From contig JAAYPO010000050.1 of the NCBI GenBank assembly GCA_012519745.1, positions 664-64,663 on the forward strand: a stretch of DNA of 64,000 bases, given 5' to 3'. This stretch comes from Clostridiaceae bacterium (lineage in GTDB: Bacteria; Bacillota; Clostridia; Acetivibrionales; DTU013). Made by a program: the position numbers and the translations under genes. The notes beneath the pieces are model-generated. The model did no database searches and was not told the DNA's origin. It saw only the letters and a program-made list of their open reading frames with translations. Positions 21,599 to 53,115 of the stretch are shown here, piece by piece (position 1 is the first letter of the stretch; each line of letters begins with the position of its first letter).

Positions 21599-21656
21599 GC
21601 CCGCGGTGCGGCGCAGATATCGAGGGGTCATGTGAGATGAAAGGCAGGCAAGAGCA

Positions 21657-22646: not shown

Positions 22647-23434
22647 AGAAGATATTTTACGTTTCAGGAAGTCTTGCTGCAATATTGCTCGTTTTGTTCC
22701 TGATCGGGGCTATAGATTTCAGTGAGAGCAAGAGAGATAAAGCGCTGTCCCAAGGAAACCGCCTGATGGAGTCCGGCAGGTACCGGGAGGCCCTTGAGGC
22801 ATATGAAAGGGGACTTGAGGATCATCCCAGGGATGCTGAGTTGAACTACAATTCCGGACATGCGCTTTACAGTATGGGCGATTACAGCGGTGCGGAGAAG
22901 TACTATGAGGCGTCCGAGCTTCCCGTGCCTGACAGATATCTGAAAATGGGCAACTGTCGACTCAATCAGGGTGACTACGGGCGGGCAGCGAAGTATTATA
23001 TGCAGGGCATATTGGAATTTCCTCAGGATGTTCCACTGAAGTATAATTATGAATTTGCTCAGGAGCAAATCCAGCAGACGGAGCAGCAGGGCGACGGCGA
23101 AGGCGAGCAGGGCGACGGCGAGGGCGGGCAGGACGACGGCGAAGGCGAGCAGGGCGACGGCGAGGGCGAGCAGGACGACGGCGAAGGCGGGCAGGACGGC
23201 GGCGAAGGCGGGCAGGACGACGGCGAAGGCGAGCAGGGCGACGGCGAAGGCGAGCAGGACGATGGGCAGGGCGAGCAGCAGGGCATCGGCGAAGATGATG
23301 CTGAAGCAGAGCAAAGGCAGACTAGAAGCGTAATCGAACACGTCCTGGAAGCACTTGAAAAGCAGGAAGCGGATAGCCTCAAGAATAACAGGAACAGGAA
23401 TCACATTTATGAGGAGGGGCAATATGAATGGTAG
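22643..23434 (+). CDS. TPR-repeat protein with an acidic G/D/E/Q repeat tail, BatC-like
   Basis: N-terminal TM, TPR-like helices (YREALEAYERGLEDHPRDAELNYNSGHALYSMGDYSGAEKYY), then (GDGEGEQ)n. ATGA overlap with the upstream gene. Confidence 0.75.
   Translation: MKKIFYVSGSLAAILLVLFLIGAIDFSESKRDKALSQGNRLMESGRYREALEAYERGLEDHPRDAELNYNSGHALYSMGDYSGAEKYYEASELPVPDRYLKMGNCRLNQGDYGRAAKYYMQGILEFPQDVPLKYNYEFAQEQIQQTEQQGDGEGEQGDGEGGQDDGEGEQGDGEGEQDDGEGGQDGGEGGQDDGEGEQGDGEGEQDDGQGEQQGIGEDDAEAEQRQTRSVIEHVLEALEKQEADSLKNNRNRNHIYEEGQYEW
23090..23278 (+). repeat. In-frame 21-nt tandem repeat (9 copies) encoding GDGEGEQ-type heptads inside the BatC-like gene
   Basis: GGCGACGGCGAAGGCGAGCAG and close variants, read directly. 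The repeat creates spurious ORFs in other frames and on the other strand. Confidence 0.9.
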
Positions 23435-33900: not shown

Positions 33901-35280
33901 ATGAAGATCATTATTATTGGGGATGGAAAAGTCGGATATGCTCTTGCAGAGAATTTGTCAAAGGAAAACAATGATGTCACTATAATCGACAAGGATCCCG
34001 AGGCTTTGAAAAAGGCAAGTGAATACCTGGATGTTATGTGTATCAGAGGCAATGGTGTAAGTACGAAGATACTGATGGAGGCCGGAGTGGATGATGCTGA
34101 TCTGCTTATAGCGGCCACTACCAGCGATGAGATGAACATGGTCTGCTGTCTTACTGCAAAGAAGCTTGGAGCGGATCATACAATAGCAAGGATCAGGGAT
34201 CCGGAATACGCCAGCGAGCTTTCCGAGCTAAAGAGGGATCTTGGTCTTGATATGGTCATAAATCCTGAGCTTGCCTGCGCCAATGAAATAGGAAGGGTGT
34301 TGAGCTACCCCTCCGCTGTGAATGTGGAGCCTTTTGCAAAAGGCCGTGTGGAGCTGGTGGAAATGAAGGTCGTTGAAGGTATGTCCCTGATCGGTATGAA
34401 GCTGAAGGACATATCGGGTAAAATCACTTCATCCATATTGATTGGTGCTGTTCTCCGTGACGGCGAGGTGATCATTCCAAACGGAGATTTTCAAATCAAT
34501 GAAAACGATATGCTTTATGTTGTCGGCCGGCCATACAATGTGTACAGTTTCTGCAGCCGCGTCGGATTGAATAATGACAAGGTCAGGACTGTCATGATCA
34601 TAGGCGGCGGCAGGGTGGCCTTTTATCTGGCCCAGTACCTGAATGAAGCCGGAGTGAAGGCAAAAATCATAGAAATCGACAGGGAGAGGTGCTATGAGCT
34701 TTCAGAGCATCTTCCCGACACACTGATCATCCATGGGGACGGTTCTGATGAAGAGCTGCTCAACTCTGAGAACCTCAGTGATATGGATGCCGTTGTGACC
34801 CTGACAGGACGGGACGAGGAGAATCTGCTGACAGCACTATTTGCAAGGCAATGCGGTGTCCAGAAGGTCATAGCAAAAATAAACAGGATCAATTATGCCA
34901 CACTCATAAAAAGCATGGGTGTGGATAGTGTTGTCAGCCCAAAGCAGATAACGGCCAACGGGATAATACAGTTTGTCAGAGGCTTGAAGAATGCTATGGG
35001 CAATCCGGTGGAGACCCTTTACAAGATCATTGGCGGCAAGGCAGAGGCAATTGAGTTTATTGCCGGACAGACAACGAAATTCCTGAATATACCGCTGCAT
35101 TATCTCAAGCTGGTGGAGGGTGTCCTATTTGCCGCCATAGTGAGAAAAAACGAGATCATTATACCCCATGGCAAGGATATGGTGAAGCTTGGTGATAGTG
35201 TAATCCTCATTGTTAAGGACAAGCAATTCTCAGATTTTAACGACGTTATTGCACCTGGAGGATTGCCGGATGAACTATAG
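33901..35280 (+). CDS. trkA: Trk potassium uptake system, NAD-binding peripheral subunit TrkA (two RCK units)
   Basis: MKIIIIGDGKVGYALA and MIIGGGRVAFYLA Rossmann motifs, each followed by an RCK_C segment. 459 aa. Confidence 0.92.
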   Translation: MKIIIIGDGKVGYALAENLSKENNDVTIIDKDPEALKKASEYLDVMCIRGNGVSTKILMEAGVDDADLLIAATTSDEMNMVCCLTAKKLGADHTIARIRDPEYASELSELKRDLGLDMVINPELACANEIGRVLSYPSAVNVEPFAKGRVELVEMKVVEGMSLIGMKLKDISGKITSSILIGAVLRDGEVIIPNGDFQINENDMLYVVGRPYNVYSFCSRVGLNNDKVRTVMIIGGGRVAFYLAQYLNEAGVKAKIIEIDRERCYELSEHLPDTLIIHGDGSDEELLNSENLSDMDAVVTLTGRDEENLLTALFARQCGVQKVIAKINRINYATLIKSMGVDSVVSPKQITANGIIQFVRGLKNAMGNPVETLYKIIGGKAEAIEFIAGQTTKFLNIPLHYLKLVEGVLFAAIVRKNEIIIPHGKDMVKLGDSVILIVKDKQFSDFNDVIAPGGLPDEL

Positions 35281-36721
35281 GATGATTTTCAGCAGCCTCG
35301 GCACTGTATTGTGCATAGAGGCAGCGCTTATGATTCCTTCTCTGATGGTTTCGCTCATATACAACCAGAATGATGTATATGCGTTTTTGATTTCGATGGT
35401 GATACTGCTGGCTGTCGGTTGCCTGCTCCACCTGCTGAAACCGAAGGACACCCAGATGTATGCCAGGGACGGGTTTGCGATAGTATCATTGTCATGGCTC
35501 TTCGTGTCGGTCTTCGGGGCATTGCCCTTCTTGATCAGCGGGGCTATACCTGCTCCTATCGATGCCTTTTTTGAATCGGTGTCAGGTTTTTCTACCACCG
35601 GAGCAACGATATTGACGCAAGTGGAAAGCCTGCCCAGGGGCATAATGTTCTGGAGGAGCTTCACCCACTGGGTCGGCGGCATGGGAGTTCTGGCATTGAT
35701 GCTGGCCGTATTGCCGTCAGTCAAGGCCAGTACGGTCCATATCATGGTGGCGGAAAGCCCCGGACCCAATCCCGGTAAACTGGTGCCCAAGATAGGGCAG
35801 ACCGTTAAGATACTTTACATCATATACACAGCCATGACGCTGGTGCAGATAATTCTCCTGCTGATATCAGGTATGCCGCTGTATGACTCCATCGTCAATT
35901 CTCTGGGGACCGCCGGGACTGGCGGATTTTCAGTAAAAAACGCCAGCATAGGTGCTTACAATAATGTATTTGCTGAAGTTATCATTTTGGTGTTCATGCT
36001 TCTGTTCGGAACGAATTTCGCACTTCATTATCAGGCTATAAAGGGTAATATCAGGTCGTATTTCCGTGACACGGAGTTCAGGTTTTATCTGGGCCTGGTC
36101 CTTGTTTCAATACTTCTTATTGCGGTCAATATCACAGGAAAAGTGTTCGGCTCATTCTGGGAATCCCTCAGGCATTCGTCATTTCAGGTCGGTTCCGTAA
36201 TAACTACCACCGGCTATGCCACAGCTGATTTCAACCTGTGGCCTTCATTCAGCAAAGCCATACTTGTAATGCTGATGTTCATCGGCGCCGCCGCAGGCTC
36301 GACAGGAGGCGGCATAAAGTGTATACGCATCATACTGCTGATAAAGGTGATGCGTCGTGAGGTATATAAAATAATCCATCCCAGATCCATATATACTGTA
36401 AAAATAAATGGGAAGGCTGTGGATGAGGATGTATTGACCGGAGTCATGGCATTTTTCTATGCCTTCATTTTCATTTTTGTTGCGGCCTTGCTGATAGTTT
36501 CACTGGAAGGCAAGGACTTGATTTCGAACTTTACGGCGGTTACGGCAACGATAGGCAATATAGGGCCGGGCCTTGGCATTGTTGGCCCGACGGGGAATTT
36601 CTCGTCCTATTCGGCCCTGAGCAAGGCTGTTTTCTCATTTTGCATGATAGCCGGAAGGCTGGAGATCTTTCCGGTGATGCTGCTGTTTGCCCCGACCTTC
36701 TGGAAGAGGGTAAATATATAG
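35270..36721 (+). CDS. trkH: Trk potassium uptake system membrane subunit TrkH
   Basis: The ATG at 35270 lies 7 nt after GGAGGA and overlaps the trkA end. Motifs SGFSTTGAT, GTAGTGGFS, TTTGYAT, GPGLG (selectivity-filter-like repeats). Confidence 0.92.
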   Translation: MNYRMIFSSLGTVLCIEAALMIPSLMVSLIYNQNDVYAFLISMVILLAVGCLLHLLKPKDTQMYARDGFAIVSLSWLFVSVFGALPFLISGAIPAPIDAFFESVSGFSTTGATILTQVESLPRGIMFWRSFTHWVGGMGVLALMLAVLPSVKASTVHIMVAESPGPNPGKLVPKIGQTVKILYIIYTAMTLVQIILLLISGMPLYDSIVNSLGTAGTGGFSVKNASIGAYNNVFAEVIILVFMLLFGTNFALHYQAIKGNIRSYFRDTEFRFYLGLVLVSILLIAVNITGKVFGSFWESLRHSSFQVGSVITTTGYATADFNLWPSFSKAILVMLMFIGAAAGSTGGGIKCIRIILLIKVMRREVYKIIHPRSIYTVKINGKAVDEDVLTGVMAFFYAFIFIFVAALLIVSLEGKDLISNFTAVTATIGNIGPGLGIVGPTGNFSSYSALSKAVFSFCMIAGRLEIFPVMLLFAPTFWKRVNI

Positions 36722-36767
36722 AAACAGATGAAAGACCCAAATGGCTTCAAAATAGGTCATAAATATA

Positions 36768-36798
36768 GGAGACAGGGGACATCCCCCTGTCTCCTTTT
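36768..36798. terminator. Bidirectional rho-independent terminator between trkH (+) and the Zn-ribbon/vWA operon (-)
   Basis: GGAGACAGGGG-ACAT-CCCCTGTCTCC, flanked by an A/T run on the left and TTTT on the right. Confidence 0.85.
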
Positions 36799-36806
36799 CG
36801 TCAGGA

Positions 36807-37256
36807 TCACAGCAGTTTATTGCCGCATTCGCCACAGAAACGTGTGTTGGGCGGGTTTTCAGTGCCGCAGCTGCTGCATGCGGAGGAGCCCAGCTTTGCG
36901 CCGCATTCACCGCAGAACTTCACGCCCTCCTGGTTTTCGCTGCCACATTCAGGACATCTGAGAGCCTGTGCCCTTTTTTCCATTGCTTCCTTTTCATCCT
37001 GGGTGGCCTTCATCTGGCTCTGGACCTGTGCGATCCTTCTTTGCAGCGTTTGGATCTCAAGGACTAGATCGCCGAATTCCGGGTCGCTGCTCACATTGCT
37101 GAACACCCTTTTTCCAATGACTGCATAAGCCTGCGTTTCCTGCTGCTGCAGATCATTCAGCTCATTCCCCAGCTGAAACAGCTTTGTATTTGGATCGTCC
37201 TGAGGCATAAATGAGCTGAAGCCTTTCAGTAAACCGCCTAAAATGTCATTTGCCAT
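36807..37256 (-). CDS. Soluble coiled-coil + double zinc-ribbon protein
   Basis: 149 aa with no TM or signal peptide. Central heptad-like helix (LVLEIQTLQRRIAQVQSQMKATQDEKEAMEKRAQAL). C-terminus CPEC...CGEC...CSSC...CGEC. RBS GGGAGG. Confidence 0.75.
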   Translation of the reverse strand: MANDILGGLLKGFSSFMPQDDPNTKLFQLGNELNDLQQQETQAYAVIGKRVFSNVSSDPEFGDLVLEIQTLQRRIAQVQSQMKATQDEKEAMEKRAQALRCPECGSENQEGVKFCGECGAKLGSSACSSCGTENPPNTRFCGECGNKLL

Positions 37257-37281
37257 AATCTTTACCTCCCATTTGATCTAA

Positions 37282-40200
37282 TTACTTTCTGCATAGCTCA
37301 AAGTAGAACTCGGCAGCTTTGTTGAAGCCGTCGCCAAAGCCTGGGATGATATTCACACTCATACTGGCCTCGAATTCCATATTACATAGGTTTGCCACAT
37401 TGATATTCCCTGTAACAGGTCCGCCTCCTACACTGAGCCCGCCTTCGCCGAAGGAAACATCAAATCCTCCGATATTTCCCGAAGTAATGTCATTCAGTCC
37501 GGATTCATCTTTTATGATATCCTTCAAAGTACCTACCGGGTCCTCATAGCAGGCTTGGACCTTGGAGACATGCTTTCCGATCTCCTTTGTTGTTATCTCA
37601 GCAGCTTTGAGCACATTTTCATAATCAGCGTACTTCAGAGAGTAGGCTGCGACTGCCCAGACAGCGGTTTCGACCCCGAAGAAGGTGCCGGCCATGAATT
37701 GTGCGCCGCCCTTTACGACGGCCCTCATCAATGTCTGGATATAGCCTGCTCCCATATGCTCTCCTGTATCGGATACTGAAATGGTCTCATAGGTCTCCGG
37801 ATTTATTTCAAGCCACATCCAGCGTTTTTCACCGCCGAATTCAGTTGGTTTGTCGGTGGCAAAAATAATATTTCTAGTGTTCAAAACACTGCTTATCAGA
37901 CGTTCCGGGAAACCATATTCGCGCATAGGTCCGGCAAATTCCTCCCGCTCTGCCCCGACGGGTATGTATACCAGCCTGGTCCCGCTGGGAGCACTTTGCC
38001 ACAATTTCTGGAAGTTTGTATTTTTGTCTCCCGGTATCATTTCGCCCTCCAGTAATGATGCGAATATGCCGGCTCCGACATTATATGCGTTCTGGGTATC
38101 TATATCTCCGCTGTGGCATTGGTTCAGTGACTGCAGCAGGTCCATCGATGTTCTGAGTATTCCGTCCTTACTGCTCAAACGGGAGGAGACGACAATACAG
38201 CGCGGCTGGCTTGTACGTCCCAGCGTCAGGGCCATTTTAGCGCCTACCTCCTTGTCGTGTACAGTCTGGCCTGTGATGAACCGATTTATTATATTTCGTC
38301 CATACCACCCCAGTGCGGACAAGGCACTGGGATCCCTGGCTGCCTTATACTCACTGGAGGATGCTGCCTCAAGTGATCTTGCGGCATCCTCAGGCAGGTC
38401 GGGGAGATTTACTGCTACATTGAGGTAAACACTGTCCGGCCCATCTCTTTCGGGTATCGAGCTCACATGAGTGAACTTGCTCTCAGAGAACTCTATATCC
38501 ACCTTTATGGCGATTATTTTACACTGGCCGGAATCCACCGAATACTGTTCGGATTGCAGGCCGCCGGGTGCGCTGATGGCAGCAGTGAACAAAGGACCTT
38601 CGCCTTTCCCGATCTCTAAGAAGCCGATTTCTGCCGTATCCGTGCTGAGATCGGCCAATGAGACTGTCATACTGGTCAGCTCTATGTCCTCAAGTATTGT
38701 GGTGGACGAATCTCCGCCGCCTCCAAGTACATTGGATATATCGTTGAGGGATGTAGACGCTGTGTTGCCCTTTGACTCCGTCATTGCCCATACTGTGATT
38801 TTTGCGTCTACAGGCTTGTATTCATCGATATCCTGATGTGTCGTGATGTAAACCAGTCCCTCCAGCTCGCTTATGTCCTTCATAAACGGGATCACAAGCA
38901 ATTTGGTGCCGGTTCCGTCATTGTATGCCAGACCGGGAACAAATTCGGTTTTCAGTTCATTAACGCCTGACAATTCCTTGAGTCTGGCCTTGCCCTCTTC
39001 AGTGAGGGCTATCAGTCTGGATCGAGGCACAAATCCGCATTTTGCCAGCATGCTGCCGGCCAGCTGACCAATATCCCATTCAGTGCCCCAGCCCTGTGTA
39101 AGCACAGCCTCGGGGGAGTAGAGGTAGCGCCATTTGTCATCGGCAGACGGCAGCCATTTTAATGACTGCAGTGTGCTAAATACCTGACTGAGCTCTTTGA
39201 TGGATCTTAATTTTGATATACCATGTGTTACAATGGTCGGGGCAGGTATATGGTTCTTACCGTCCGGCTGGATGAAATCGATGGTTTTTGTATATCCGGT
39301 CAATCCCTCTGAGGACTTGTATGACTGATATTTCTGCTCTGCCTTTTTGACCGCCTCCGACAGCTGCTTTTGGAATTCCTCGTCAAAGAGCATGATATCG
39401 GTTTTTTGCACCAGAAGCTCTGATGAACTGTATGCAGATCTGGCCATCGGCTCGTTCAGATCGGTGAAATAACCGGACTTGAGGACCCAGTCATGCTCCT
39501 CGTCCGGCAGCGTAAACAATACCAGGCCTCTTCGCTGCATCCCGCTGTACACACCCCAGTTTTCATCAATGCCATAAAGCAGGTCGGCTGTTGCCGAATA
39601 CGGGAGCAATACACCGTCCGTTGTGCTTGTATTTCCGAAGTCATCAAATCCGATACTGCCGGTGGATGAGCTGATATCATTATAGGATTCCTCATCCTCG
39701 TAGTACTCTTCTTCTTTGTATTCTTCTTCCTCGTAGTACTCATCATCCTGGTCTTCTTCGTATTCTTCTTCCTCATCGGAGCCTTCTGCAGTCTGCCGGG
39801 CCACAGATGAAAGGTCCATCCTGCCCGAGCCGGCAAGATCTTTGCGGACCAGATAGAGGATGTCCTCCGGGATGACCGCACCTTCCGTGCCCGGGGGACA
39901 GGAGAAGGTAACGTCTGCTACGACCCATCCCGGGCCGAAGTATTCAACCTGATCAAGGGTAGTCAGCTGGTTCACTCTCAGCTGCAAGCCCTGAGAGGAT
40001 AATGAGGGTTTGTTTACGGCATTGCCATAGGCCTTGCCCTGTATGATGGGCAGCTCCAGGCTGGCATCCCGCAGGTCTGCCCAAAGCATGGATTTTGTCC
40101 CTGACAGGGCTTTTGCCACGGGATATGCAAAGCGCACCTTGTTTACAGAGGATGGGGCCAGCTTTACAGGAGACATGAAGCCAAGGGGCAGAGCTGCCGT

Positions 40201-43200
40201 TGCATTACTCAGCCTGGTCATCAAAGAGCCGCTGTTGGTATCGATCTTGAGCATGAACCGTTCGGCGGGTTCGATATCCAGCAGTGCCTGTACCTTTGAG
40301 TCGAACTGTGCCTCGATTACCCTGAAGGCTGTTTTGTCAGCCGCCTTGTAAATATCGATGGTCTCGGTATCTTTTACTGCAGTGACCTTTATTGTAAACG
40401 CATCGGTGATATCAGCCGGAGCCGCTGTGGGCATGCTGTCAAGCTGCAATAGCTCAGTGCTCATCCTTCCTGTCAGCGGCATATGGACATGCCCCTCCGA
40501 GACATCGTAAAAGTGGAGTGATGCCTGGGTCACGGGATCTTGCGGCACAATGAACATTATCATGCCGGATGCGCTTTGTCCTGCCGGGATGGTAATGGCA
40601 GGATCCCCCGGCACGGTTATGGGCTTTTCTGTCAGCCATGTGGCATCAGAGGCCGGGAAGCTTCCGTTGTTGTTGATTGTTATATAAAAGTGATTATGAA
40701 AGCTTGGTATTTCATATGTGATATTATTGGGGGTCACATTCTTCATATCCAGCTCAAGGGCAAGGAAGCATTTGCCATAGGGAGCCTCCAGACCTCTGAA
40801 CTTATCAAAATAGAAGGCGTCCCCTACAGTTATCTCCATTGCGTTGTTTTTTGCTTTCTTGTTGTAAGAAACACGCCTGTTCATTATGGATTCTTCGCCA
40901 GGCTTGCTGGTACCGGTCAGGCGAGAGGCAACCTCTTTGTCATACTGCTTCACAGCAGTGCCGACAGTAAGCATCACAGGCTGGGGATCGGCTGCTTTTC
41001 CTGATTTGGCGGGCCTTGAGAATTCCACATCCACTGAGGAGGCATATTTGAAGGATGCGCCTGATGCTGTCTGCTCATTTATCGAAACGGTCAGGTGCAC
41101 ATTTGGCGAACCCGATCCCGAAGTGATAAGACCCAGTATTTCTTCAAGGGAAGACCTTAAGCCTTCGGCATCCTCGCTTACCACATAACGCCCGCCTGAC
41201 AGCTGGGCAGCCCTTTCGAAGACTTCCTTTTTGTCCTCTACACCCATACCGGCCCAGAGCACTAATATATTATCCTTCTTTATTTCCCCGAGCAGCTTCT
41301 CAAAATCGGCCTGATCATCTTCTTCCACTTCAAGAGCGGCATCTGTCATGAATACCATTACTCTTTTGCTGGTCGGTACGGACATCAGGTTCAGGTAACC
41401 CACTCTGATTGCTTCCAGTATGGGGGTGCCTCCGGCGGCATTAAGGGAGCCAAGGCCATGGAGCATCCTCACTTTATCGCTTGTGGTCATCTGCTGCTGT
41501 TTTATTATACTGCCCCCGAGGGCGCCGGTCTGGAAGCTTGTCATCTGGAAAAGGCTCTGTTCCGGCAGCTTCATTATGAAATCGTGGAACAGTACCTTGG
41601 TCCTATCCATGCGATAGCCGCAGCCCTCGTCTTCTTCAGGGTCCGTATCCATGGAGCCCGAGGCGTCCAATATCAGGCTTATGACAGGCTTGTCCGAAAG
41701 AGCGGACTCTGTGGGGCGCTTGTATTTCATTACAAAGGAATTGCCGAATTTGCTGCCGATAGCCTCAAATACATTGTCCAGTGCCTTGCTGTCCCTGGCA
41801 TCATAGTATTCACCGCCTGAGGCTGCTGCAAAATCCTTAAGGGCCTGCTTGTCGGCTCCTTCTCTGAAGCCGATGGTATACAGAGGTATCCCGGCTTCTT
41901 TTATACAATAGATGACATCATCCTTGGTGGAGCCGCTGCCTTCGCCCTGGCCGTCGATACTGGAATCTGCTCCGTCCGCAAACAGTACGACTGCAGGTCG
42001 GGTCTTGTCTTGGAGCAGCTGTATCCCCTCTATGGTAGCATCAAACAGCACGGTGGAGCCGGATGCCTTTACCGAGGAGAGGCTTTTTATGACAGCCTCC
42101 TTGGTATCGCCTTTAAGTACACGGACAGTTGAGTCAAAATCGATGACCTTTATATAGGTTTTATCCGGCAGACTGTTTATGAATTTTTTAGCAGACTCTA
42201 TGGTTGCGGTCATATGACTGCCCATGGAGCCGGAGGAGTCCAGCACAAGGACTACGCTCGGAGGTGATATCTGCCGCGTGATATCCAGTATCTCGACCTG
42301 CTTTCCGCCTTCGGTAATGACTGTGTTCTTTTTATCGGGGAAAACATCTCTGTTTTGCGGGTCCTCTACCAGCATGGATATGGAGGCAGTATCACCCTCA
42401 TCCTTTGTTTCGGTGATAACTATGCCCCCTGTCAGGTCGCCGGGTTCGGCAAAATACTGGCTGAGGGTCGTATATGCGCTGCCAAGCGAATCGGGTATGG
42501 TCAAGACTGTCTCCTGTCCCGAGCTCACCGGTACAAGTCTGGAAATACACGAGTCCATTCCCGTTGCATCTGTTGGGAGCATGACGTTCCAGTAGCCGGC
42601 AGGGAGCCAAAAAAGGGTATCGCCTTCGGGGGTTATATCTCCCTCCATAGAGTACTCCTGTCCATATTCATATTCCATACCGTTTTGGGGTTCGACCTTA
42701 GCATTCATGAAGGGAACACCGCGAACCTTCAGCGCGCCAAGCTCGTCACCCTGTTTTATCTCAGGGATCTCTCCCAGTTCATTGAGCTTGAAGGTGAATT
42801 CTGCCGGCGCCTGTCCATCCTCCCACCTGAAGCACCAGGTGAGGGGATCGGAGGTCTGCGGCAGATCGTCGAGGACGAATTTGTTGGACTTGAGGGCTGA
42901 AAGCTCCCGCCTGTAAAAAACATTCCTCGTAAGTATGCCGGTTTTGGCAGTGCCTGTCAGTTCAAGGTGGAGTGCGCCTGAGGGAACATATATCTCAGCC
43001 GATTGAAACTTTTTGCCCTCTGTTTGTGTCACAAAGGTCACCGTAGGATCATACTCATCGGGATCCACAGCAGTTGAGAGCTTCGTTTCCCTTCCTGCCT
43101 GGACCCGGGGTTCCTTTACGACGATAAGGGTGTAGCCCTCATCCTCCAGAACGGCATCGCCCCACCAAAGGCTATTTTCATCCTTGCTGTACGTAAAGGT

Positions 43201-43596
43201 GAGCCTGTCGCCGAATGCGCTGGAGTAGATGTTACCGCCAAGCTCGGCAACATATTCCTTCAGAAACTCCAGCGGGATACCTGACGGGTCAGCGACTAGA
43301 AGCACCCAGATCTCGCCAAGGACTGTCTTCTGATTTTCTACAAAGTTTTCTATGTACTTCAGATTATGGGAGCCCTTTGAATAAGATGTACCGGAATAGA
43401 GATCCTGGGAGCCGAGGGGATTGATTTCCGGAACAGGGATATCCCATACACCCACCGGACCTCTTTTTGGACCCTCCACATTTGCGGTGGTCTTCTTGCC
43501 TCCGTCTTTATCAGCGTCCTTGCGTTTAAACAGACAGCCTGAAAAACTGCCCACAAGCAAGGCCGTGATTAGAAATACTGATATGATTTTTTTCAT
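37282..43596 (-). CDS. Giant (2104 aa) lipoprotein with two complete vWA/MIDAS domains, Ig-like beta modules, an acidic E/Y tract, a degenerate transglutaminase-like motif and a ~600-aa unassigned C-terminal region
   Basis: Lipobox LLVGSFSGC. vWA 1 at aa ~447-617 (VVLVLDSSGSMG...GSTVL...FADGAD). vWA 2 at aa ~637-825 (ISLILDASGSMD...AGGTPI...FMTDAA). DUF4352-like modules at aa ~930-1370. EEEEYEEDQDDEYYEEEEYKEEEYYEDEE at aa 1274-1302. Confidence 0.85.
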   Translation of the reverse strand: MKKIISVFLITALLVGSFSGCLFKRKDADKDGGKKTTANVEGPKRGPVGVWDIPVPEINPLGSQDLYSGTSYSKGSHNLKYIENFVENQKTVLGEIWVLLVADPSGIPLEFLKEYVAELGGNIYSSAFGDRLTFTYSKDENSLWWGDAVLEDEGYTLIVVKEPRVQAGRETKLSTAVDPDEYDPTVTFVTQTEGKKFQSAEIYVPSGALHLELTGTAKTGILTRNVFYRRELSALKSNKFVLDDLPQTSDPLTWCFRWEDGQAPAEFTFKLNELGEIPEIKQGDELGALKVRGVPFMNAKVEPQNGMEYEYGQEYSMEGDITPEGDTLFWLPAGYWNVMLPTDATGMDSCISRLVPVSSGQETVLTIPDSLGSAYTTLSQYFAEPGDLTGGIVITETKDEGDTASISMLVEDPQNRDVFPDKKNTVITEGGKQVEILDITRQISPPSVVLVLDSSGSMGSHMTATIESAKKFINSLPDKTYIKVIDFDSTVRVLKGDTKEAVIKSLSSVKASGSTVLFDATIEGIQLLQDKTRPAVVLFADGADSSIDGQGEGSGSTKDDVIYCIKEAGIPLYTIGFREGADKQALKDFAAASGGEYYDARDSKALDNVFEAIGSKFGNSFVMKYKRPTESALSDKPVISLILDASGSMDTDPEEDEGCGYRMDRTKVLFHDFIMKLPEQSLFQMTSFQTGALGGSIIKQQQMTTSDKVRMLHGLGSLNAAGGTPILEAIRVGYLNLMSVPTSKRVMVFMTDAALEVEEDDQADFEKLLGEIKKDNILVLWAGMGVEDKKEVFERAAQLSGGRYVVSEDAEGLRSSLEEILGLITSGSGSPNVHLTVSINEQTASGASFKYASSVDVEFSRPAKSGKAADPQPVMLTVGTAVKQYDKEVASRLTGTSKPGEESIMNRRVSYNKKAKNNAMEITVGDAFYFDKFRGLEAPYGKCFLALELDMKNVTPNNITYEIPSFHNHFYITINNNGSFPASDATWLTEKPITVPGDPAITIPAGQSASGMIMFIVPQDPVTQASLHFYDVSEGHVHMPLTGRMSTELLQLDSMPTAAPADITDAFTIKVTAVKDTETIDIYKAADKTAFRVIEAQFDSKVQALLDIEPAERFMLKIDTNSGSLMTRLSNATAALPLGFMSPVKLAPSSVNKVRFAYPVAKALSGTKSMLWADLRDASLELPIIQGKAYGNAVNKPSLSSQGLQLRVNQLTTLDQVEYFGPGWVVADVTFSCPPGTEGAVIPEDILYLVRKDLAGSGRMDLSSVARQTAEGSDEEEEYEEDQDDEYYEEEEYKEEEYYEDEESYNDISSSTGSIGFDDFGNTSTTDGVLLPYSATADLLYGIDENWGVYSGMQRRGLVLFTLPDEEHDWVLKSGYFTDLNEPMARSAYSSSELLVQKTDIMLFDEEFQKQLSEAVKKAEQKYQSYKSSEGLTGYTKTIDFIQPDGKNHIPAPTIVTHGISKLRSIKELSQVFSTLQSLKWLPSADDKWRYLYSPEAVLTQGWGTEWDIGQLAGSMLAKCGFVPRSRLIALTEEGKARLKELSGVNELKTEFVPGLAYNDGTGTKLLVIPFMKDISELEGLVYITTHQDIDEYKPVDAKITVWAMTESKGNTASTSLNDISNVLGGGGDSSTTILEDIELTSMTVSLADLSTDTAEIGFLEIGKGEGPLFTAAISAPGGLQSEQYSVDSGQCKIIAIKVDIEFSESKFTHVSSIPERDGPDSVYLNVAVNLPDLPEDAARSLEAASSSEYKAARDPSALSALGWYGRNIINRFITGQTVHDKEVGAKMALTLGRTSQPRCIVVSSRLSSKDGILRTSMDLLQSLNQCHSGDIDTQNAYNVGAGIFASLLEGEMIPGDKNTNFQKLWQSAPSGTRLVYIPVGAEREEFAGPMREYGFPERLISSVLNTRNIIFATDKPTEFGGEKRWMWLEINPETYETISVSDTGEHMGAGYIQTLMRAVVKGGAQFMAGTFFGVETAVWAVAAYSLKYADYENVLKAAEITTKEIGKHVSKVQACYEDPVGTLKDIIKDESGLNDITSGNIGGFDVSFGEGGLSVGGGPVTGNINVANLCNMEFEASMSVNIIPGFGDGFNKAAEFYFELCRK

Positions 43597-43670
43597 AGTA
43601 ATAACATACCCCCTATACTCTAGTCAGCTGATGACTGACATACATCAGAGATTTGGCGGCTGTTCCGGCG

Positions 43671-44336
43671 TTAAAGCCTGGTGCCGCACTCTCCACAGAA
43701 TTTGACACCCTGTGCGATTTTTTCGCCGCAGTTGGGACATTTGTTCAGCGACAGATTCTGTCCGCAGTTGTTGCAGAACTTGCCTCCGCCGGAAGGCTTT
43801 CCGCAGTTGGGACAGGTGATGGTCTTGCTTTCGATGGGGCCCCGGAAGACATTGGCTGTTTCGGCTGCCTCTTCGATCTGCTGTACCATTCTGGTTGCCT
43901 TTGCTTTGGCAACGGCAACGTTCTGGCGCGGGGCACATTCAACGCACATGCCTTCGTCCTCGTTGAAATCCGAGTCGCAGATCCACTGGCGGCAGCCATG
44001 GCAGCGGTTGAAATGCTGCTTTGCTTCATTTTGGGCCTTTATGAAGGCTGCCTCATGCTCTTTCTGCCATTCCGGGCTCATGCCGTGGAATCTTTCGGAC
44101 AGCACATCGCTGCCATAGCCTGCACTTCTTGCAACATCGCCTATCGCGCCTCCGAAAAGGCTTCCCAGCGCTCTTGCGCCGCCGGAAATACCACGCAGCA
44201 GCGAGCCCTTCTTATATGTTTCCGACTCGATGAAGGATGATTTAAAGCCGTCGTTGCAGAGGTCACAGTAAAAGGTGAACTGGAAGCCGGCTTCAGTGCT
44301 GTTATCTTCATAGTTGCGGGTGAATGAGTTTAGCAT
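43671..44336 (-). CDS. Soluble multi-zinc-ribbon protein (221 aa)
   Basis: CDLC, CHGC...CVEC, then C-terminal CPNC...CNNC...CPNC...CGEC (double zinc ribbon). Gly-rich segment GGARALGSLFGGAIG. No TM or signal peptide. Confidence 0.7.
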   Translation of the reverse strand: MLNSFTRNYEDNSTEAGFQFTFYCDLCNDGFKSSFIESETYKKGSLLRGISGGARALGSLFGGAIGDVARSAGYGSDVLSERFHGMSPEWQKEHEAAFIKAQNEAKQHFNRCHGCRQWICDSDFNEDEGMCVECAPRQNVAVAKAKATRMVQQIEEAAETANVFRGPIESKTITCPNCGKPSGGGKFCNNCGQNLSLNKCPNCGEKIAQGVKFCGECGTRL

Positions 44337-44372
44337 AATGAGATCTCCTCCTGTGGAATTATTTATATTTGA

Positions 44373-44705
44373 CTATTTTTTTGAAATGACTTTACCGCAT
44401 GCCGTGCATTTTTTGTTCTCAAAAAACTGTCTGCTTTGACAGCGTTTGTTGGGGCATTGGGTCATCAGGCTCTCTCCGCAATGCTCGCAGCTCTCCTGAA
44501 CAAATGTTTTTTCCATGCATTTGGGGCAGAGGATATAAAGGGGTCTTCCGCATCCCCGGCATACAGCATCTCCCTTGCCGACCTCAAGAAGGCAGGCCGG
44601 ACAGCTGTAGATAAAAGGACTCATGCTGCCGCATTTCGGACAGAAATGTGAATCTCTGGGAAGATAATTCCCGCAATGAATGCATGGCTCTTTATAAAAT
44701 GCCAC
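44373..44705 (-). CDS. Small protein made almost entirely of four tandem zinc ribbons (110 aa)
   Basis: Eight Cys pairs (seven CxxC plus CPNKRC): CIHC, CPKC, CPAC, CRGC, CPKC, CEHC, CPNKRC, CTAC. GTG start preceded by GAGGTG. Confidence 0.65.
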   Translation of the reverse strand: MAFYKEPCIHCGNYLPRDSHFCPKCGSMSPFIYSCPACLLEVGKGDAVCRGCGRPLYILCPKCMEKTFVQESCEHCGESLMTQCPNKRCQSRQFFENKKCTACGKVISKK

Positions 44706-44849
44706 GGTATCACCTCACTTTCCTACATAATATATTATAAAGAAACAAATGAGTGAAGTAATCACCTAAATGACAATATATGCAGCAATGGGGGGTGATT
44801 TTAGGGGTGATTTTTCAAAAACATGAACAAAAACTGCCGATGCATAACA

Positions 44850-50727: not shown

Positions 50728-53115
50728 TCACCTCCAGAAGTCATTGAGGACATCTGTGAGGCTGCAGCCGTCGGAGGCTCTGGCTATAGGGCTCCATTCC
50801 GGCGGGAGCAGTTCGCGGTAGATGTGGTAGGAGAAGCGTTCATCGAGCAGTATCACTACGCCCATATCCTCTTCAGTGCGGATAACGCGGCCTGCAGCCT
50901 GCAGTACACGGTTGATGCCCGGATAGGTATAGGCATATTCGAAGCCGTTTCCGGCTTGCTCGTCAAAGTGCCTGCGGATTATGTTCCTCTCATTGCATAT
51001 CTGTGGAAGGCCGACGCCCACAATGATCGCGCCTGACAGCCGGTCTCCCGTAAGGTCTATGCCTTCTCCGAAAACGCCTCCCATTACTGCGAACCCTGCC
51101 AGACTCGATTCACCTGTGTTTTCAAACTCAAGCAGGAACTCCTGCCTCGCAGCCTCCGACATGCCCGGTGTCTGGTACAGTGTACGGATGCCGTGGCTTA
51201 TCCCCATGAATCTGTAATAGACCTCATTTAGATATTCGAAGGAAGGAAAGAATACCATATAGTTGCCGGGTCTTGCTGTGACCGTATCAAGCACTGCTTT
51301 GGCAATTTTGTCATAAGAGAACTGCCTTGTTTTGTACTTTGTCGATATGGAATCATCAACATATACGCACAGGTTCTCCTTTGGAAATGGAGATGGTATT
51401 GTCAGAGACCGTGCATCACCGCCGCTGAGCATCCCAATGAAGTATTCCATGGGAGAGAGGGTGGCAGAGAACAATATTGATGCCCTTCCCTTGTCCATTA
51501 CATCCCTCAGCAGCTTTGAGGGGTCTATGCAAAACAGCTTGATCCTGAAATCCGCCGATGATTTGTCAAAGCATGTGACGTATTTATCGTCATAAAGCTC
51601 GGTGATCTTCATGAAATGGAGGCTGTCATAATAGACTTCCAGCAGCGTGTCCATGAAGGAAACCGGCGGATTGCGGGACAGCCAGCTTTCCATTATGCCT
51701 GTGAAGCCTTCCAGCAGCCTGTGCAGTTCGTCGGGCCGTTTTCTTCTTACACGGTAAAACCCCTTCCCGTGGTCATCATCCTCTTCCACCATTGATTTTG
51801 ACGTATCGAGAAAATACCTGTATATCCTGTCCAGAGAATCATAGATTTCCGGCAGCTCATCCTTTGCAGCCTTTTTCAGCCTGAAAAATGCCCTTTTCGA
51901 GAGCTCTGCCGAATACATGTCCCTTGCCCTGTCCACCAGGTTGTGGGCTTCATCCACAAGGAAGCAGTAGTCGCCCCGCCTTGTGAAGTATCTTTTCAGA
52001 TACACCCTGGGGTCAAAGAGGTAATTGTAATCACAGATAATGACATCGTATAAAAGGGACAGGTCAAGTGACAGCTCAAAGGGGCACAGTTTGTATTTTC
52101 GAGCATAATGCTCGATAGTCGGCCTGTCCAGTGTGTCCTCCTCCAATGTGTCTGCCATCGCCTTTTTGATCTTGCCGTAATAGTTCGTGGTGTATTCGCA
52201 GTTTTCGGTATTGCAGATCTGCTCCTGACAAAAGCATATCTTTTCTTTTGCTGTTAGTGTTATGGATTTGATACTAAGACCCTTTTGCCTCATATCGGCC
52301 AGGGATTTTTCAGCCAGGCTTCTGGTGGTGGTTTTTGCGGTAAGATAAAATATTTTTGATATCAGGCCATCGCCCATGGCCTTTACCGAGGGATACAGTG
52401 AGGCAATGGTCTTGCCTGTGCCTGTGGGCGCCTGGGCAAACAGCAGTTCATTGTTTTCTATGGTGTCATATACATTTTCCATAAACTCCAGCTGGCCCTG
52501 ACGGTATGATGCATATGGAAAGTCTAGCCCGCTGATGGAGCTGTCCCTTGAGATGCTCCACCCGTTGACGGTTTCCTGCCATGCCAGGTAGTCATTGGCC
52601 AGAGGCATGAAAAAATCTTCAAGGGTATCGAAGCTGTACAGATCAATAAAGGATTTATCCCGTTTCTCATCCAGCTGGAAATAGGTCAGACGCACTGCTA
52701 TGTAGTCAAGCCCGTTCCTTTTAGCCAGCATGAAGGCATAGCATTTGGCCTGTGCCCAGTGCAGAGGATTGTACTCGTGCTCTATGAGATCGAGAGGGAG
52801 TGTGGTGGTTTTGATCTCGTGTATAGTCGTACCGGAAGCATCCGTAAGCAGGCCGTCTATCCTGCCGCTTACCTCAAGCAGCAGTTTGGAGCCCTCCAAT
52901 TGGAAAGTGATCGGCACTTCGGCATCATAAGTCTCGCTGTCTGAAAGCTCTTCTTTTACCAGCTTCCTGACGGCAGTGTGGCCCCTGGTGCCCTCTGCTG
53001 CTCTTGACGGTGAATACCCGCCTGCAGTTAGGTCTCCTGACTGGAGTGAATATTCGACAAGCTCCTGCACCGATACATAGATCTTTTTTTTACTCTGCAT
53101 GTCTGCGCCCTTCAT
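50728..53115 (-). CDS. DinG/Rad3-family (XPD-like) DNA helicase with an N-terminal PD-(D/E)XK RecB/Cas4-like nuclease domain
   Basis: Helicase: AQAPTGTGKT, DEAHNL, a Cys cluster CFCQEQICNTENCEY (Fe-S-like), GVFGEGID, QAAGRVIR. N-terminal ~190 aa: GRIDGL...IHEIKTT...HWAQAKCY (D, ExK, QxxxY). Confidence 0.8.
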   Translation of the reverse strand: MKGADMQSKKKIYVSVQELVEYSLQSGDLTAGGYSPSRAAEGTRGHTAVRKLVKEELSDSETYDAEVPITFQLEGSKLLLEVSGRIDGLLTDASGTTIHEIKTTTLPLDLIEHEYNPLHWAQAKCYAFMLAKRNGLDYIAVRLTYFQLDEKRDKSFIDLYSFDTLEDFFMPLANDYLAWQETVNGWSISRDSSISGLDFPYASYRQGQLEFMENVYDTIENNELLFAQAPTGTGKTIASLYPSVKAMGDGLISKIFYLTAKTTTRSLAEKSLADMRQKGLSIKSITLTAKEKICFCQEQICNTENCEYTTNYYGKIKKAMADTLEEDTLDRPTIEHYARKYKLCPFELSLDLSLLYDVIICDYNYLFDPRVYLKRYFTRRGDYCFLVDEAHNLVDRARDMYSAELSKRAFFRLKKAAKDELPEIYDSLDRIYRYFLDTSKSMVEEDDDHGKGFYRVRRKRPDELHRLLEGFTGIMESWLSRNPPVSFMDTLLEVYYDSLHFMKITELYDDKYVTCFDKSSADFRIKLFCIDPSKLLRDVMDKGRASILFSATLSPMEYFIGMLSGGDARSLTIPSPFPKENLCVYVDDSISTKYKTRQFSYDKIAKAVLDTVTARPGNYMVFFPSFEYLNEVYYRFMGISHGIRTLYQTPGMSEAARQEFLLEFENTGESSLAGFAVMGGVFGEGIDLTGDRLSGAIIVGVGLPQICNERNIIRRHFDEQAGNGFEYAYTYPGINRVLQAAGRVIRTEEDMGVVILLDERFSYHIYRELLPPEWSPIARASDGCSLTDVLNDFWR

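Follow-up and report, generated by a model that had tools for sequence, protein, structure and literature searches.

A widespread zinc-ribbon gene module of Clostridia and the rare, predicted giant double-vWA lipoprotein whose gene it carries

Proteins that combine zinc ribbons of the PF12773 or PF13240 families with a transmembrane (TM) helix and an extracellular domain have been described in Gram-positive bacteria, the YARHG proteins being one example (PMC3355149). The four-gene cassette analyzed here uses the same Pfam ribbon families (PF12773, PF13240 and PF13248). Like the YARHG-type proteins, it pairs cytoplasmic ribbons with an extracytoplasmic domain and is biased toward Firmicutes, and both are uncharacterized. 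However, its ribbons and ectodomain are on separate polypeptides that no TM helix links, its ectodomain is a 2,100-aa double-vWA protein, and its ribbon genes usually occur without an ectodomain gene. A second precedent comes from Bacillus subtilis, in which the zinc-ribbon protein YdjG belongs to the PspA-YdjGHI (SamGHI) system, a membrane-proximal scaffold that recruits soluble coiled-coil/SPFH proteins (PMC8581546, PMC9239133). We liken the two by description and as an analogy only: this system places zinc-ribbon proteins at the inner face of the membrane, but YdjG is itself a membrane protein and the cassette has no PspA, SPFH or YdjH-like gene.

Two further groups resemble the giant protein of the cassette, g3. 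The BatA/BatB-type “aerotolerance” operons also encode extracytoplasmic proteins that are anchored in the membrane and contain two vWA domains, in association with Ig-like (BatD-like) modules, and both they and the cassette are envelope-associated and uncharacterized. In contrast to these operons, the cassette lacks a MoxR ATPase, DUF58 and the BatA N-terminal domain, and g3 unites both vWA domains in a single giant chain that also bears a unique C-terminal module of 800 aa. An operon of this MoxR-DUF58-vWA type lies at ~18.9-25.1 kb of the window, by which we mean the whole 64,000-nucleotide stretch of DNA that was analyzed. Bacterial alpha-2-macroglobulins are giant periplasmic lipoproteins anchored to the membrane, and one of them is encoded at 60681-63914 of the window. 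They share with g3 their size class, lipid or TM anchoring at the outer face of the cytoplasmic membrane and multi-beta-sandwich build. However, g3 has vWA domains instead of A2M, MG and thioester domains, and this is a likeness of layout, not of family. As the first-pass annotation had supposed, no characterized system matching the cassette was found in PADLOC, NCBIfam, PHROGs, the PDB or the literature.

The cassette consists of four co-directional genes on the minus strand, encoding 110, 221, 2104 and 149 aa:

44734..44739, minus strand: perfect -10 hexamer TATAAT, read from the sequence, 28 nt 5' of the g1 GTG
44705-44373, minus strand: g1, 110-aa ORF with a GTG start
44336-43671, minus strand: g2, 221-aa ORF
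43596-37282, minus strand: g3, 2104-aa ORF
37256-36807, minus strand: g4, 149-aa ORF
36767..36795, strand-neutral: GC-rich hairpin of 13 pairs (8 GC), between convergent g4 and trkH

The coordinates of the genes and the gaps of 36, 74 and 25 nt between them are as first annotated. Each gene is preceded by a Shine-Dalgarno-like purine run, and from the 25-74-nt gaps we infer that g1 to g4 are co-transcribed. The TATAAT noted upstream is indeed a perfect hexamer (44739-44734), but with the poor -35 that accompanies it, it counts as no more than a candidate promoter. A consensus scan against shuffles found 11 promoter-like sites in the region where 9.1 are expected, which is no enrichment over chance. 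The hairpin after the last gene (36795-36767), already judged strong, is the strongest terminator-like site of the region. Just past it the plus strand reads TTTTCGTC, which makes bidirectional termination with trkH plausible, and the hairpin is a probable terminator common to g4 and trkH. The genes flanking the cassette are housekeeping genes (trkAH, chrA).

Pfam DZR passes its cut-off in g1, g2 and g4, reaching 49.5 bits in g1 (cut-off 27.3), which is built of four zinc ribbons in tandem. The C-terminal double zinc ribbon ascribed to g2 is present (residues 173-221), and we can add a helical linker and, before it, a Cys-rich N-terminal domain (residues ~1-140) with seven Cys that are invariant in the alignment (C24, C27, C112, C115, C120, C131 and C134). 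A PDB profile search with g2 returned nothing but generic zinc ribbons. In g4, the conserved motif at the N terminus reads MxNDxxGGLLKGxxxFMPxDDP, a coiled coil with a YxxIG motif spans residues ~30-98, and the protein ends in a double zinc ribbon (99-149). No hydrophobic segment was found in any of the three by hydropathy (Kyte-Doolittle maximum <=1.0), and all are predicted to be cytoplasmic. This agrees with the original view that the small proteins lack a signal peptide or TM helix and that the giant is exported.

The features of g3 are as follows:

43534..43596, minus strand: signal peptide and lipobox, residues 1-21, ending ...SFSGC
42262..43464, minus strand: N-terminal all-beta region, residues ~45-445, several beta-sandwich modules
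41722..42255, minus strand: vWA domain 1, residues 448-625, full MIDAS
41107..41691, minus strand: vWA domain 2, residues 636-830, full MIDAS
40513..40863, minus strand: Ig-like module, residues 912-1028, weak DUF4352 similarity
39652..39786, minus strand: acidic E/D/Y-rich low-complexity insert, residues 1271-1315
37285..39669, minus strand: family-exclusive C-terminal module, residues 1310-2104

The signal peptide is the sole segment of g3 with a Kyte-Doolittle value above 1.6 (peak 2.27 at residues 4-22), and by hydropathy there is no TM segment or cytoplasmic tail besides the lipid anchor. The protein is read as the precursor of a giant, membrane-anchored extracytoplasmic double-vWA lipoprotein. 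It has 99 full-length homologues, each ~2,000 aa. The lipobox is kept in Clostridial members, other lineages have a TM anchor or signal peptide instead, and anchoring in diderm relatives is predicted to be at the inner membrane. The all-beta region was modeled with AlphaFold at pLDDT 86 (mb8221cc5771f) and gave weak, generic beta-sandwich matches in Foldseek (CPE C-terminal domain, GOLD, CUB). Pfam VWA matches the first vWA domain at residues 448-611 (65.5 bits, E 9e-18), and the second was detected at ~636-830 through a second stretch of VWA_2, TIGR00868 and TIGR03788. Both had been called MIDAS-complete, and both motifs (D453/S455/S457/T515/D541 and D644/S646/S648/T724/D752) are invariant in an alignment of 33 family members. 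DUF4352 (PF11611) scores under its cut-off on residues 912-1028 (E 0.016) and is also annotated on several homologues.

Among 1.84 billion representatives, the C-terminal module was found in just 211, in every case within the same architecture or in fragments. Some 600 aa of g3 had been described as free of recognizable motifs, and this is only partly so. In a model of the module (md3ea4a21c055; pLDDT 74 overall, 80-95 across fragment residues ~140-640), residues ~1450-1610 take up a transglutaminase/papain-like fold, accompanied by beta domains and, toward the C terminus, by a helical hairpin (1954-2031). The best Foldseek match is the CPR-C4 protease 7ob6 (E 0.019, probability 1.0), followed by BDI_1141, PeiP/PeiW, NATs and TG2. 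A family motif, QGWG-x-E...LA...L..G, resembles the Cys-helix of the transglutaminase/papain fold. In contrast to these proteins, the nucleophile position is T/S/N/D/E/G/A/H and is Cys in none of 33 sequences. The fold is transglutaminase-like and Cys-less, with weak Foldseek E-values (0.02 or worse), and its probable role is that of a binding module without catalytic activity.

The small genes have a life of their own. With 1,767 clusters at 90% identity for g2 and 981 clusters for g4, their families are 10-20 times the size of the giant family (99). Among the best 80 of the metagenomic g2 matches listed, some of which come from near-duplicate loci, g1 lies directly upstream of g2 in 59 of 71 loci (orthologues 52-78% identical) and g4 is adjacent in ~30 of 48. 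A giant gene is present in just 2 of 51. The commonest order is g4-g1-g2, and stand-alone trios of this kind occur in L086, L088 and L090, with orthologues 46-72% identical; a solitary g4 is found in Acetobacterium paludosum. The genes that recur beside the trio have an envelope theme: they encode DUF4870/HOTT membrane proteins, in some cases with zinc ribbons fused at the N terminus, as well as small lipoproteins and LuxR-type regulators bound to the membrane. On the related contig L094, the locus is collinear with 47679-30700 of the window (~17 kb) minus exactly g3, with ~4 nt in place of the 6.4-kb g3 interval. From these gene neighborhoods, g1 and g2 appear to be an obligate pair, usually joined by g4, in an autonomous module that is widespread in Clostridia and almost always free of any giant.

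Looking outward from the giant, the flanks could be read at 22 loci, and at 14 of these no zinc-ribbon gene lies beside it; the giant therefore does not need g4 adjacent. Outside two Firmicutes clades most giant genes lack such a neighbor, and the Clostridial giants of L013, L015, L023, L173 and L174 have no g4-type one. The full g1-g2-g3-g4 cassette persists in L003 and L095, in other genomic contexts and with giants 57% and 45% identical. In L006, the giant is preceded at 41 nt by a g4-like coiled-coil gene, which the strict HMM recognizes at E 1.3e-7. The giants of L001, L011, L021 and L172 are preceded, at 8-69 nt, by a gene for a coiled coil plus one ribbon. The strict N-terminal g4 HMM missed this latter, Paenibacillaceae-type protein, but hhalign matches it to the g4 family (93.5% probability, E 2e-7). 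This one profile-profile result and the common architecture suggest homology to g4. The two groups of giants with an abutting g4-type gene are separate clades on the giant tree, and the gene is found both upstream and downstream, at a spacing of 8-93 nt. Of the three small proteins, only g4 appears to be encoded next to the giant repeatedly across distant lineages, and its abutting the giant in two separate clades makes the link probably functional.

These neighborhoods support the earlier proposal of a dedicated four-gene system only in part; it was to fall if, among other things, the ribbon genes and the vWA gene did not stay together in relatives. Synteny holds in L003 and L095, and the g4 link extends to a second distant clade; synteny fails in L094 and in 49 of the 51 loci above. 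The further idea that the trio exists to serve the giant is not supported, given how few loci contain a giant and how many giants are ribbon-less. The cassette is best described, on sequence grounds, as a widespread, uncharacterized three-gene Clostridia module carrying a rare giant, with only g4 repeatedly linked to it.

The explanation that we favor, with a probability of about one half for the whole, is a mosaic operon of two independently conserved units. One would be a cytoplasmic zinc-ribbon module, the g1+g2 pair usually with coiled-coil g4; the other, a rare ~2,000-aa family on the outer face of the cytoplasmic membrane, held by a lipid or N-terminal TM anchor. In the window lineage, the giant gene lies inside a g1-g2-g4 operon, after g2 and ahead of g4, and can be lost with the rest of the locus undisturbed. 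To the observed modularity, topology, intact MIDAS sites and recurrent g4-giant adjacency, this explanation adds roles at the membrane. The giant may be a non-enzymatic, metal-ion-dependent binding scaffold acting in the wall or periplasmic zone, not as a distal adhesin. At the inner face, g4 (with g1/g2 where present) may form a zinc-ribbon/coiled-coil assembly that is co-expressed with and functionally tied to envelope proteins. The cassette would then divide among several polypeptides what Gram-positives commonly combine in a single “zinc-ribbon pair - TM helix - extracellular domain” protein, and its zinc-ribbon proteins would not serve as secretion machinery dedicated to the giant. It is hard to see how g4 could touch mature g3 directly because g3 has no TM segment or cytoplasmic tail and the window cassette has no gene for DUF4870 or a zinc-ribbon-TM protein as a bridge.

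It is also possible, if unlikely, that the giant gene came to lie, or was kept, in a well-expressed g1-g2-g4 operon whose promoter it merely borrows, the giant and the zinc-ribbon proteins having no functional relation. The clean presence/absence of g3 in an otherwise identical locus (L094), the 49 giant-free loci, the many giants without zinc-ribbon neighbors and the otherwise heterogeneous neighbors of g1-g2, such as NRPS and two-component systems, would all fit. However, such hitch-hiking accounts poorly for a g4-type gene abutting giants on either side in two separate clades, since chance adjacency can be roughly put at ~1e-3 per event (few copies per ~6,000-gene genome), or for a g1-g2-g3-g4 order that holds although the giant diverges to 45% identity.

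Dedicated biogenesis, in line with the chaperoning or secretion role raised in the first-pass annotation, is a more doubtful proposition. Here g4, with or without g1/g2, would be a cytoplasmic chaperone or targeting factor that maintains the 2,104-aa precursor in an export-competent state or passes it on to the Sec/lipoprotein pathway, elsewhere serving other exported neighbors, possibly with Tic20-like DUF4870/HOTT proteins. The export of the giant from a compartment in which the small proteins stay, the g4-type genes immediately 5' of giants (8-69 nt) and the lipoproteins and HOTT proteins recurring beside the trio are in its favor, the last being distant Tic20 homologues (PMC11628618). But most giants, including the five Clostridial ones named above, lack a g4-type neighbor, DUF4870 genes are absent from the window cassette, HOTT proteins are uncharacterized themselves (PMC11628618), and Pfam, NCBIfam and PDB profile searches found no similarity of the small proteins to known chaperones or secretion components.

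Slightly less probable again is a regulatory role, in which the zinc-ribbon proteins would regulate the expression of neighboring envelope genes by binding nucleic acid, acting as soluble equivalents of membrane-tethered transcription factors, the function hypothesized for DZR-TM-YARHG proteins (PMC3355149). Nucleic-acid binding is frequent among zinc ribbons, and three different LuxR/GerE-type regulators recur next to the trio. Against this, profile searches of the cassette proteins found no DNA-binding family above cut-off, an obligate array of three ribbon-only proteins would be unusual for a regulator, and the dedicated GerE regulators nearby suggest that the trio is regulated, not regulating. 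An anti-phage or inter-bacterial conflict system, with the vWA giant as sensor or effector and the zinc-ribbon proteins as regulators, is disfavored and very improbable: some conflict systems contain vWA and zinc-ribbon domains and the giant gene is polymorphic for presence (L094), but PADLOC gave coiled-coil noise only, PHROGs generic domain matches only and plasmid and phage searches nothing, ATPase, nuclease and toxin domains are absent, the flanks are housekeeping genes and the giant is extracytoplasmic.

Finally, the acidic insert of g3 is shared by the window protein, P0003, P0006 and P0024 and by none of the 29 remaining aligned members, and it is lineage-specific.

All four genes of the cassette were recovered as minus-strand open reading frames where the first-pass annotation had placed them, with the reported intergenic gaps of 36 (g1/g2), 74 (g2/g3) and 25 nt (g3/g4), between flanking chrA and trkH genes.

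The four-gene cassette
44705-44373, minus strand: g1, 110-aa ORF
44336-43671, minus strand: g2, 221-aa ORF
43596-37282, minus strand: g3, 2104-aa ORF, the giant
37256-36807, minus strand: g4, 149-aa ORF

A purine-rich ribosome-binding site precedes every start. The TATAAT described upstream of g1 is present at 44739-44734, but it has a weak -35 element, and the cassette region shows no excess of promoter-like sites over shuffled sequence. The strong terminator proposed after the last gene corresponds to a 13-bp hairpin at 36795-36767, which ranks first among the terminator-like sites of the region and is common to g4 and the convergent trkH. Together, the gaps, the ribosome-binding sites, the one -10 element and the one hairpin predict a single g1-g4 transcript from ~44727 to ~36768. 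An Rfam search of the entire window matched no RNA family. Both GC skew and AT skew change sign at ~36 kb (window ~34000-38000), at the convergent trkH/g4 boundary, probably reflecting the change of coding strand.

The domain description of the cassette proved accurate when checked against Pfam, NCBIfam and homologue alignments. A double zinc ribbon was called from a profile match above the gathering score and four CxxC-type knuckles per double ribbon. Pfam DZR (PF12773) matches g1, g2 and g4 with 49.5, 35.8 and 50.5 bits, respectively, against a cut-off of 27.3, and the cysteine positions of the double ribbon are invariant in the family alignments A2 (for g2) and A6. None of the three small proteins contains a transmembrane (TM) segment by hydropathy (maximum Kyte-Doolittle value 1.0 or less), as had been claimed.

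Pfam, NCBIfam, hydropathy and an alignment of 33 homologues likewise agree that g3 is a lipoprotein with two vWA domains, each with a complete metal-ion-dependent adhesion site (MIDAS). The first domain (residues 448-611) scores 65.5 bits against PF00092 (cut-off 23.8), and the second (residues 627-830) is covered by a second stretch of VWA_2 and by TIGR00868/TIGR03788; both MIDAS sets (DxSxS...T...D) are unchanged across the 33 homologues. The lipoprotein signal, MKKIISVFLITALLVGSFSGC, has a hydropathy peak of 2.27 and is the sole membrane-grade segment in g3. Its lipobox, judged against the pattern [LVI..][ASTVI][GAS]C, has an atypical F at -3. The box is kept in Clostridial homologues, and the n- and h-regions of the signal peptide together with the lipobox predict a bacterial lipoprotein processed as an Lgt/Lsp substrate. 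We rejected g3 as a sortase-anchored vWA adhesin or pilus tip protein: its C-terminus, ...FNKAAEFYFELCRK, has neither an LPXTG motif nor a terminal TM segment, no sortase gene was found in the cassette flanks, and the TIGR03788 match covers the vWA domain alone with a score far under the cut-off. Helix 1967-1985 was considered as a second TM segment leading to a cytoplasmic tail for g4. Its hydropathy of 1.26 is below threshold, a conserved acidic or polar residue sits in its middle, and the segment is modeled as a helical hairpin, so we rejected this reading; a re-entrant or membrane-surface role is possible.

The giant family comprises 99 clusters of full-length proteins of ~2,000 aa from Clostridia, Peptococcaceae, Desulfitobacterium, Paenibacillus/Cohnella, Sedimentibacter, Caldiserica, Riflebacteria and Frateuria, and matching genes also occur at loci from Opitutaceae and Desulfobacteraceae metagenome-assembled genomes (MAGs). 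All homologues are annotated merely as "VWA domain-containing" or "hypothetical". A contig scan with the full-length alignment yielded ~20 true family members among 80 loci because it keyed on generic vWA MIDAS peptides. The C-terminal 795 aa of g3 were far more discriminating in HMMER: all 211 matches among 1.84 billion representatives lie at the same position in a ~2,000-aa protein or are fragments, and this module is thus exclusive to the giant family. The rare giants constitute one block of genomic dark matter, an envelope protein family with an 800-aa module of its own. An acidic, E/D/Y-rich low-complexity insert occupies g3 residues 1271-1315 (window 39652-39786, minus strand), where D and E make up 24 of the 45 positions and Tyr is frequent; among the aligned family members, comparable inserts occur only in homologues P0003, P0006 and P0024 and are absent from the other 29.

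AlphaFold models of g3 regions were built from the family alignments. Residues 25-445 form a chain of beta-sandwiches (pLDDT 86) with generic structural neighbors only. Residues 1310-2104 are multidomain, with an overall pLDDT of 74 and values of 80-95 over most of the region, and their best PDB neighbors in Foldseek (CPR-C4 protease, BDI_1141, PeiP/PeiW, NATs and TG2) all have the transglutaminase/papain fold. The statistics are weak (best E 0.019), and the TM-scores are low because the query holds several domains. Where the core helix begins, the position of the catalytic cysteine is taken by T1505 in g3 and by Cys in none of the 33 members, so that the putative transglutaminase-like domain most likely serves in binding. 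Nothing recognizable as an enzymatic function was found in the cassette. Giant N-termini carry a lipobox in Clostridia, an uncleaved TM anchor in Paenibacillaceae and Frateuria, and a signal peptide elsewhere. In diderm hosts, such anchors would place the giant in the periplasm, attached to the inner membrane, which speaks for a function within the envelope and against one as a distal adhesin.

The window and the homologous locus L094 form a natural presence/absence pair. L094, from a bioreactor metagenome, has a g2 84% identical to that of the window and is collinear with window positions 47679-30700, through DUF4846, ferredoxin, two chrA genes, g1, g2, g4, trkH, trkA and beyond. The g3 interval, 6.4 kb in the window, is about 4 nt in L094, where g2 and g4 are spaced by ~21 nt with a ribosome-binding site between them. 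Because the more distant loci L003 and L095 (g2 79-82% and giants 45-57% identical) retain g1-g2-g3-g4, loss of g3 in the L094 lineage is the more parsimonious history. Whether lost or gained, the giant is not required by the other genes of the operon, and the two loci offer a ready-made natural control for functional work.

The zinc-ribbon genes also have a wide distribution of their own. There are 1,767 matches in the g2 family and 981 in the g4 family, both far more than the giant's 99 clusters; upwards of 120 of the g2 matches align full-length at 63% identity or better. Contiguous g4-g1-g2 with no giant occurs in g2-homologue neighborhoods from a Bacillota MAG, a Christensenella MAG and a metagenome, and in Acetobacterium paludosum g4 stands alone, without either partner. 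Among the best 80 loci in a metagenome scan with the g2 alignment, some of them near-duplicates, g1 lies directly upstream of g2 at 59 of the 71 with enough flank, g4 adjoins g1-g2 in ~30 of 48 (mostly upstream, three times downstream), and a giant gene is found at 2 of 51. The synteny expected of relatives thus holds at L003 and L095 but fails at L094 and at nearly all of these g2 loci. From these sequence neighborhoods, we read g1, g2 and g4 as a module in its own right. It makes up a second block of dark matter, a very common three-gene Clostridial module whose sequence clusters number in the thousands across gut, digester and fermentation metagenomes. Neither module is characterized in the libraries or literature we searched.

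Several genes recur beside this trio: DUF4870/HOTT membrane proteins, small lipoproteins (DUF6591 and others), AIM24 (L006, L090), a divergent pair of a membrane-bound GerE protein and SBP_bac_8, and other GerE regulators.

Recurrent neighbors of the trio at homologous loci
L086 9782-10949, L088 9821-10303, L090 7235-7585, L006 3753-4139: DUF4870/HOTT
L003 14992-18187, L088 4415-7506, L090 3138-6211, L095 4634-7967, L100 4400-7435: GerE/LuxR and SBP_bac_8 pair
L088 7890-8144, L095 8098-8466, L006 3390-3728; also L103, L117, L127, L129, L165, L171: short paralogues of the g2 N-domain

A DUF4870/HOTT (Tic20-like) protein stands immediately beside the trio at 15 of the 80 loci; in L086 and L088 it carries a fused N-terminal zinc ribbon of the g2/g4 type. 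HOTT proteins are uncharacterized distant homologues of Tic20 (PMC11628618). The opposite-strand pair, a ~545-aa membrane-bound GerE/LuxR regulator and a ~470-aa SBP_bac_8 protein, flanks the module at 13 of the 80 metagenomic loci and several others, and may regulate it; it is absent beside the window cassette. The short g2 paralogues (84-123 aa, Cys-rich, without the C-terminal double ribbon) often lie a little upstream of the trio, and their existence marks the g2 N-domain as an independent unit. At loci lacking g4, a ~418-aa protein with no Pfam match is found directly upstream of g1 (L160 5287-6543 and similar); its cluster spans 25 loci, and over-long ORF calls may inflate its size. A 2,055-aa ORF upstream of g1-g2 in L098, considered as a further giant cargo, is an NRPS.

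Seen from the giant's side, a zinc-ribbon or coiled-coil neighbor is present at 8 of 22 loci with readable flanks. The order g1-g2-g3-...-g4 is found in the window, L003 and L095; in L095, a conserved lipoprotein stands between the giant and g4. L006 has a g4-like coiled-coil gene 41 nt upstream of its giant, together with DUF4870, AIM24, a lipoprotein and a short paralogue of the g2 N-domain. At four loci of the Paenibacillaceae type (L001, L011, L021, L172), a 119-aa coiled-coil and single-ribbon gene precedes the giant by 8-69 nt. For P0003, P0004, P0008 and P0011, a like arrangement is suggested by adjacent locus tags and contigs of equal length. Cultured carriers of a g4-type gene together with the giant include Paenibacillus thermotolerans, P. 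daejeonensis, Cohnella sp. LGH and Desulfitobacterium dichloroeliminans. Our initial g4 N-terminal HMM contained L001 and L006, so its Paenibacillaceae-type matches were circular and we discounted them; a strict HMM missed these upstream proteins. Direct hhalign comparison with the g4 family gave 93.5% probability (E 2e-7) across the YxxIG motif, the coiled coil and the first ribbon, and on this alignment and the shared architecture the Paenibacillaceae-type protein is a probable g4 homologue. In a neighbor-joining tree of the 22 giants, the two g4-associated groups form separate clades with g4-less lineages between them. Since chance adjacency is unlikely to have arisen twice, the best reading is that g4-type proteins are functionally linked to the giant. 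No tie of g1/g2 to the giant was seen outside the window's own clade among these loci. The remaining 14 giants lack any zinc-ribbon or coiled-coil neighbor; they come from Frateuria, Riflebacteria, Opitutaceae, Desulfobacteraceae, Sedimentibacter and several Clostridia. The idea of one dedicated system is only partly borne out, given the giant-less trios, L094 and the neighborless giants. Downstream of the giant, the sister loci L095 (17516-18487) and L006 (13125-13568) share the conserved lipoprotein, with the motif VYFFEESY..R.G..F.R..SEFRQEKDGS. The 93-nt giant/g4 spacer of L003 contains a long perfect hairpin at 14460-14500 (GGCGATATAGCGGCA...TGCTGCTATATCGCC); having no T-run, it may serve in RNA processing or attenuation instead of termination.

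We consider a mosaic operon the best-supported explanation, with a probability of about one half. A non-catalytic scaffold on the membrane's outer face, binding by way of its MIDAS, would be co-expressed with a cytoplasmic zinc-ribbon/coiled-coil assembly drawn from the broader envelope-associated Clostridial module, as a split counterpart of the Gram-positive "zinc-ribbon pair - TM - extracellular domain" proteins. Those of the YARHG type (PMC3355149) hold ribbons, TM segment and ectodomain in one chain, whereas here the ectodomain is encoded separately and g1, g2 and g4 lack TM segments; the resemblance would be one of logic only. By hydropathy, the lipid-anchored g3 has no cytoplasmic tail, which makes direct communication with a cytoplasmic protein hard to envisage. 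The cassette is a variant of this zinc-ribbon/ectodomain pairing theme and a conserved-hypothetical operon. With a g4-type gene repeatedly adjoining an exported giant, it supplies a concrete case of an unexplained Gram-positive pairing of cytoplasmic ribbons with extracytoplasmic domains, and the g4-giant pair with its natural g3 indel is a well-defined entry point into the common module.

Plain hitch-hiking of the giant in a zinc-ribbon operon, which L094 and the giant-less trios would fit, is a minority possibility set against the recurrence of g4 in two clades. More doubtful is a broader proposal, in which g4-type proteins are cytoplasmic partners of giant vWA proteins and g1/g2/g4 with DUF4870/HOTT form a new Clostridial envelope-lipoprotein pathway (insertion, assembly or transmembrane signaling) with the giant as its largest client. 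A dedicated biogenesis factor, to which the g4 adjacency might point, is improbable alongside so many neighborless giants, and nucleic-acid-binding regulators, for which the soluble ribbons could be taken, are a slimmer prospect again. A conflict system is scarcely credible: PADLOC-DB has no match for g1-g3 and only coiled-coil matches of g4 to LmuB at E>0.01, PADLOC, PHROGs, plasmid and phage searches lend no support, and the latter two found no plasmid or phage carriage. Nothing in this analysis points to a known virulence, defense or resistance function.

The earlier statement that no characterized system matches the cassette stands after NCBIfam, PADLOC, PHROGs, PDB and literature searches, the databases returning generic vWA and zinc-ribbon matches only. 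B. subtilis YdjG/PspA offers an earlier example of a zinc-ribbon protein in a scaffold close to the membrane (PMC8581546, PMC9239133). The PspA-YdjGHI/Sam membrane-stress module, unlike the cassette, has PspA/IM30 and SPFH genes and a membrane-integral zinc-ribbon protein; Pfam found neither PspA/IM30 nor SPFH in the cassette or the trio neighborhoods examined. With no components in common, we rejected this identification and keep the likeness as an analogy only. Bat/MoxR-vWA operons differ in having an adjacent MoxR AAA+ ATPase, DUF58 and the BatA N-terminal TM domain, and this assignment was also rejected, as the cassette's neighbors are chrA and trkH and g3 has no BatA or DUF58 match.

The window does hold a Bat-type operon elsewhere, along with other envelope genes.

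Other loci in the window
14985-17834, plus strand: 949-aa membrane protein, C-terminal third an SBP_bac_8 solute-binding domain
18913-25109, plus strand: Bat-type "aerotolerance" operon, whole span
18913-19764, plus strand: DUF58 gene of this operon
20636-21598, plus strand: BatA-like vWA gene of this operon
21657-22646, plus strand: second vWA gene of this operon
23355-25109, plus strand: BatD-domain protein of this operon
27616-29265, plus strand: YfbK-type vWA lipoprotein (vWF_A, VWA and YfbK_C)
50728-53115, minus strand: DinG/XPD-type helicase with N-terminal PD-(D/E)XK nuclease domain
60681-63914, minus strand: bacterial alpha-2-macroglobulin-like protein, 1,077 aa (A2M_BRD, A2M, weak bMG10)

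The Bat-type operon also includes a 291-aa gene without assignment, listed between DUF58 and the BatA-like vWA gene, and a MoxR gene presumably lies just upstream, at ~17.9-18.9 kb. Three separate vWA loci (this operon, the YfbK-type gene and g3) therefore fall within a 26-kb span inside the window, and the alpha-2-macroglobulin-like protein is another giant envelope protein of the same stretch.
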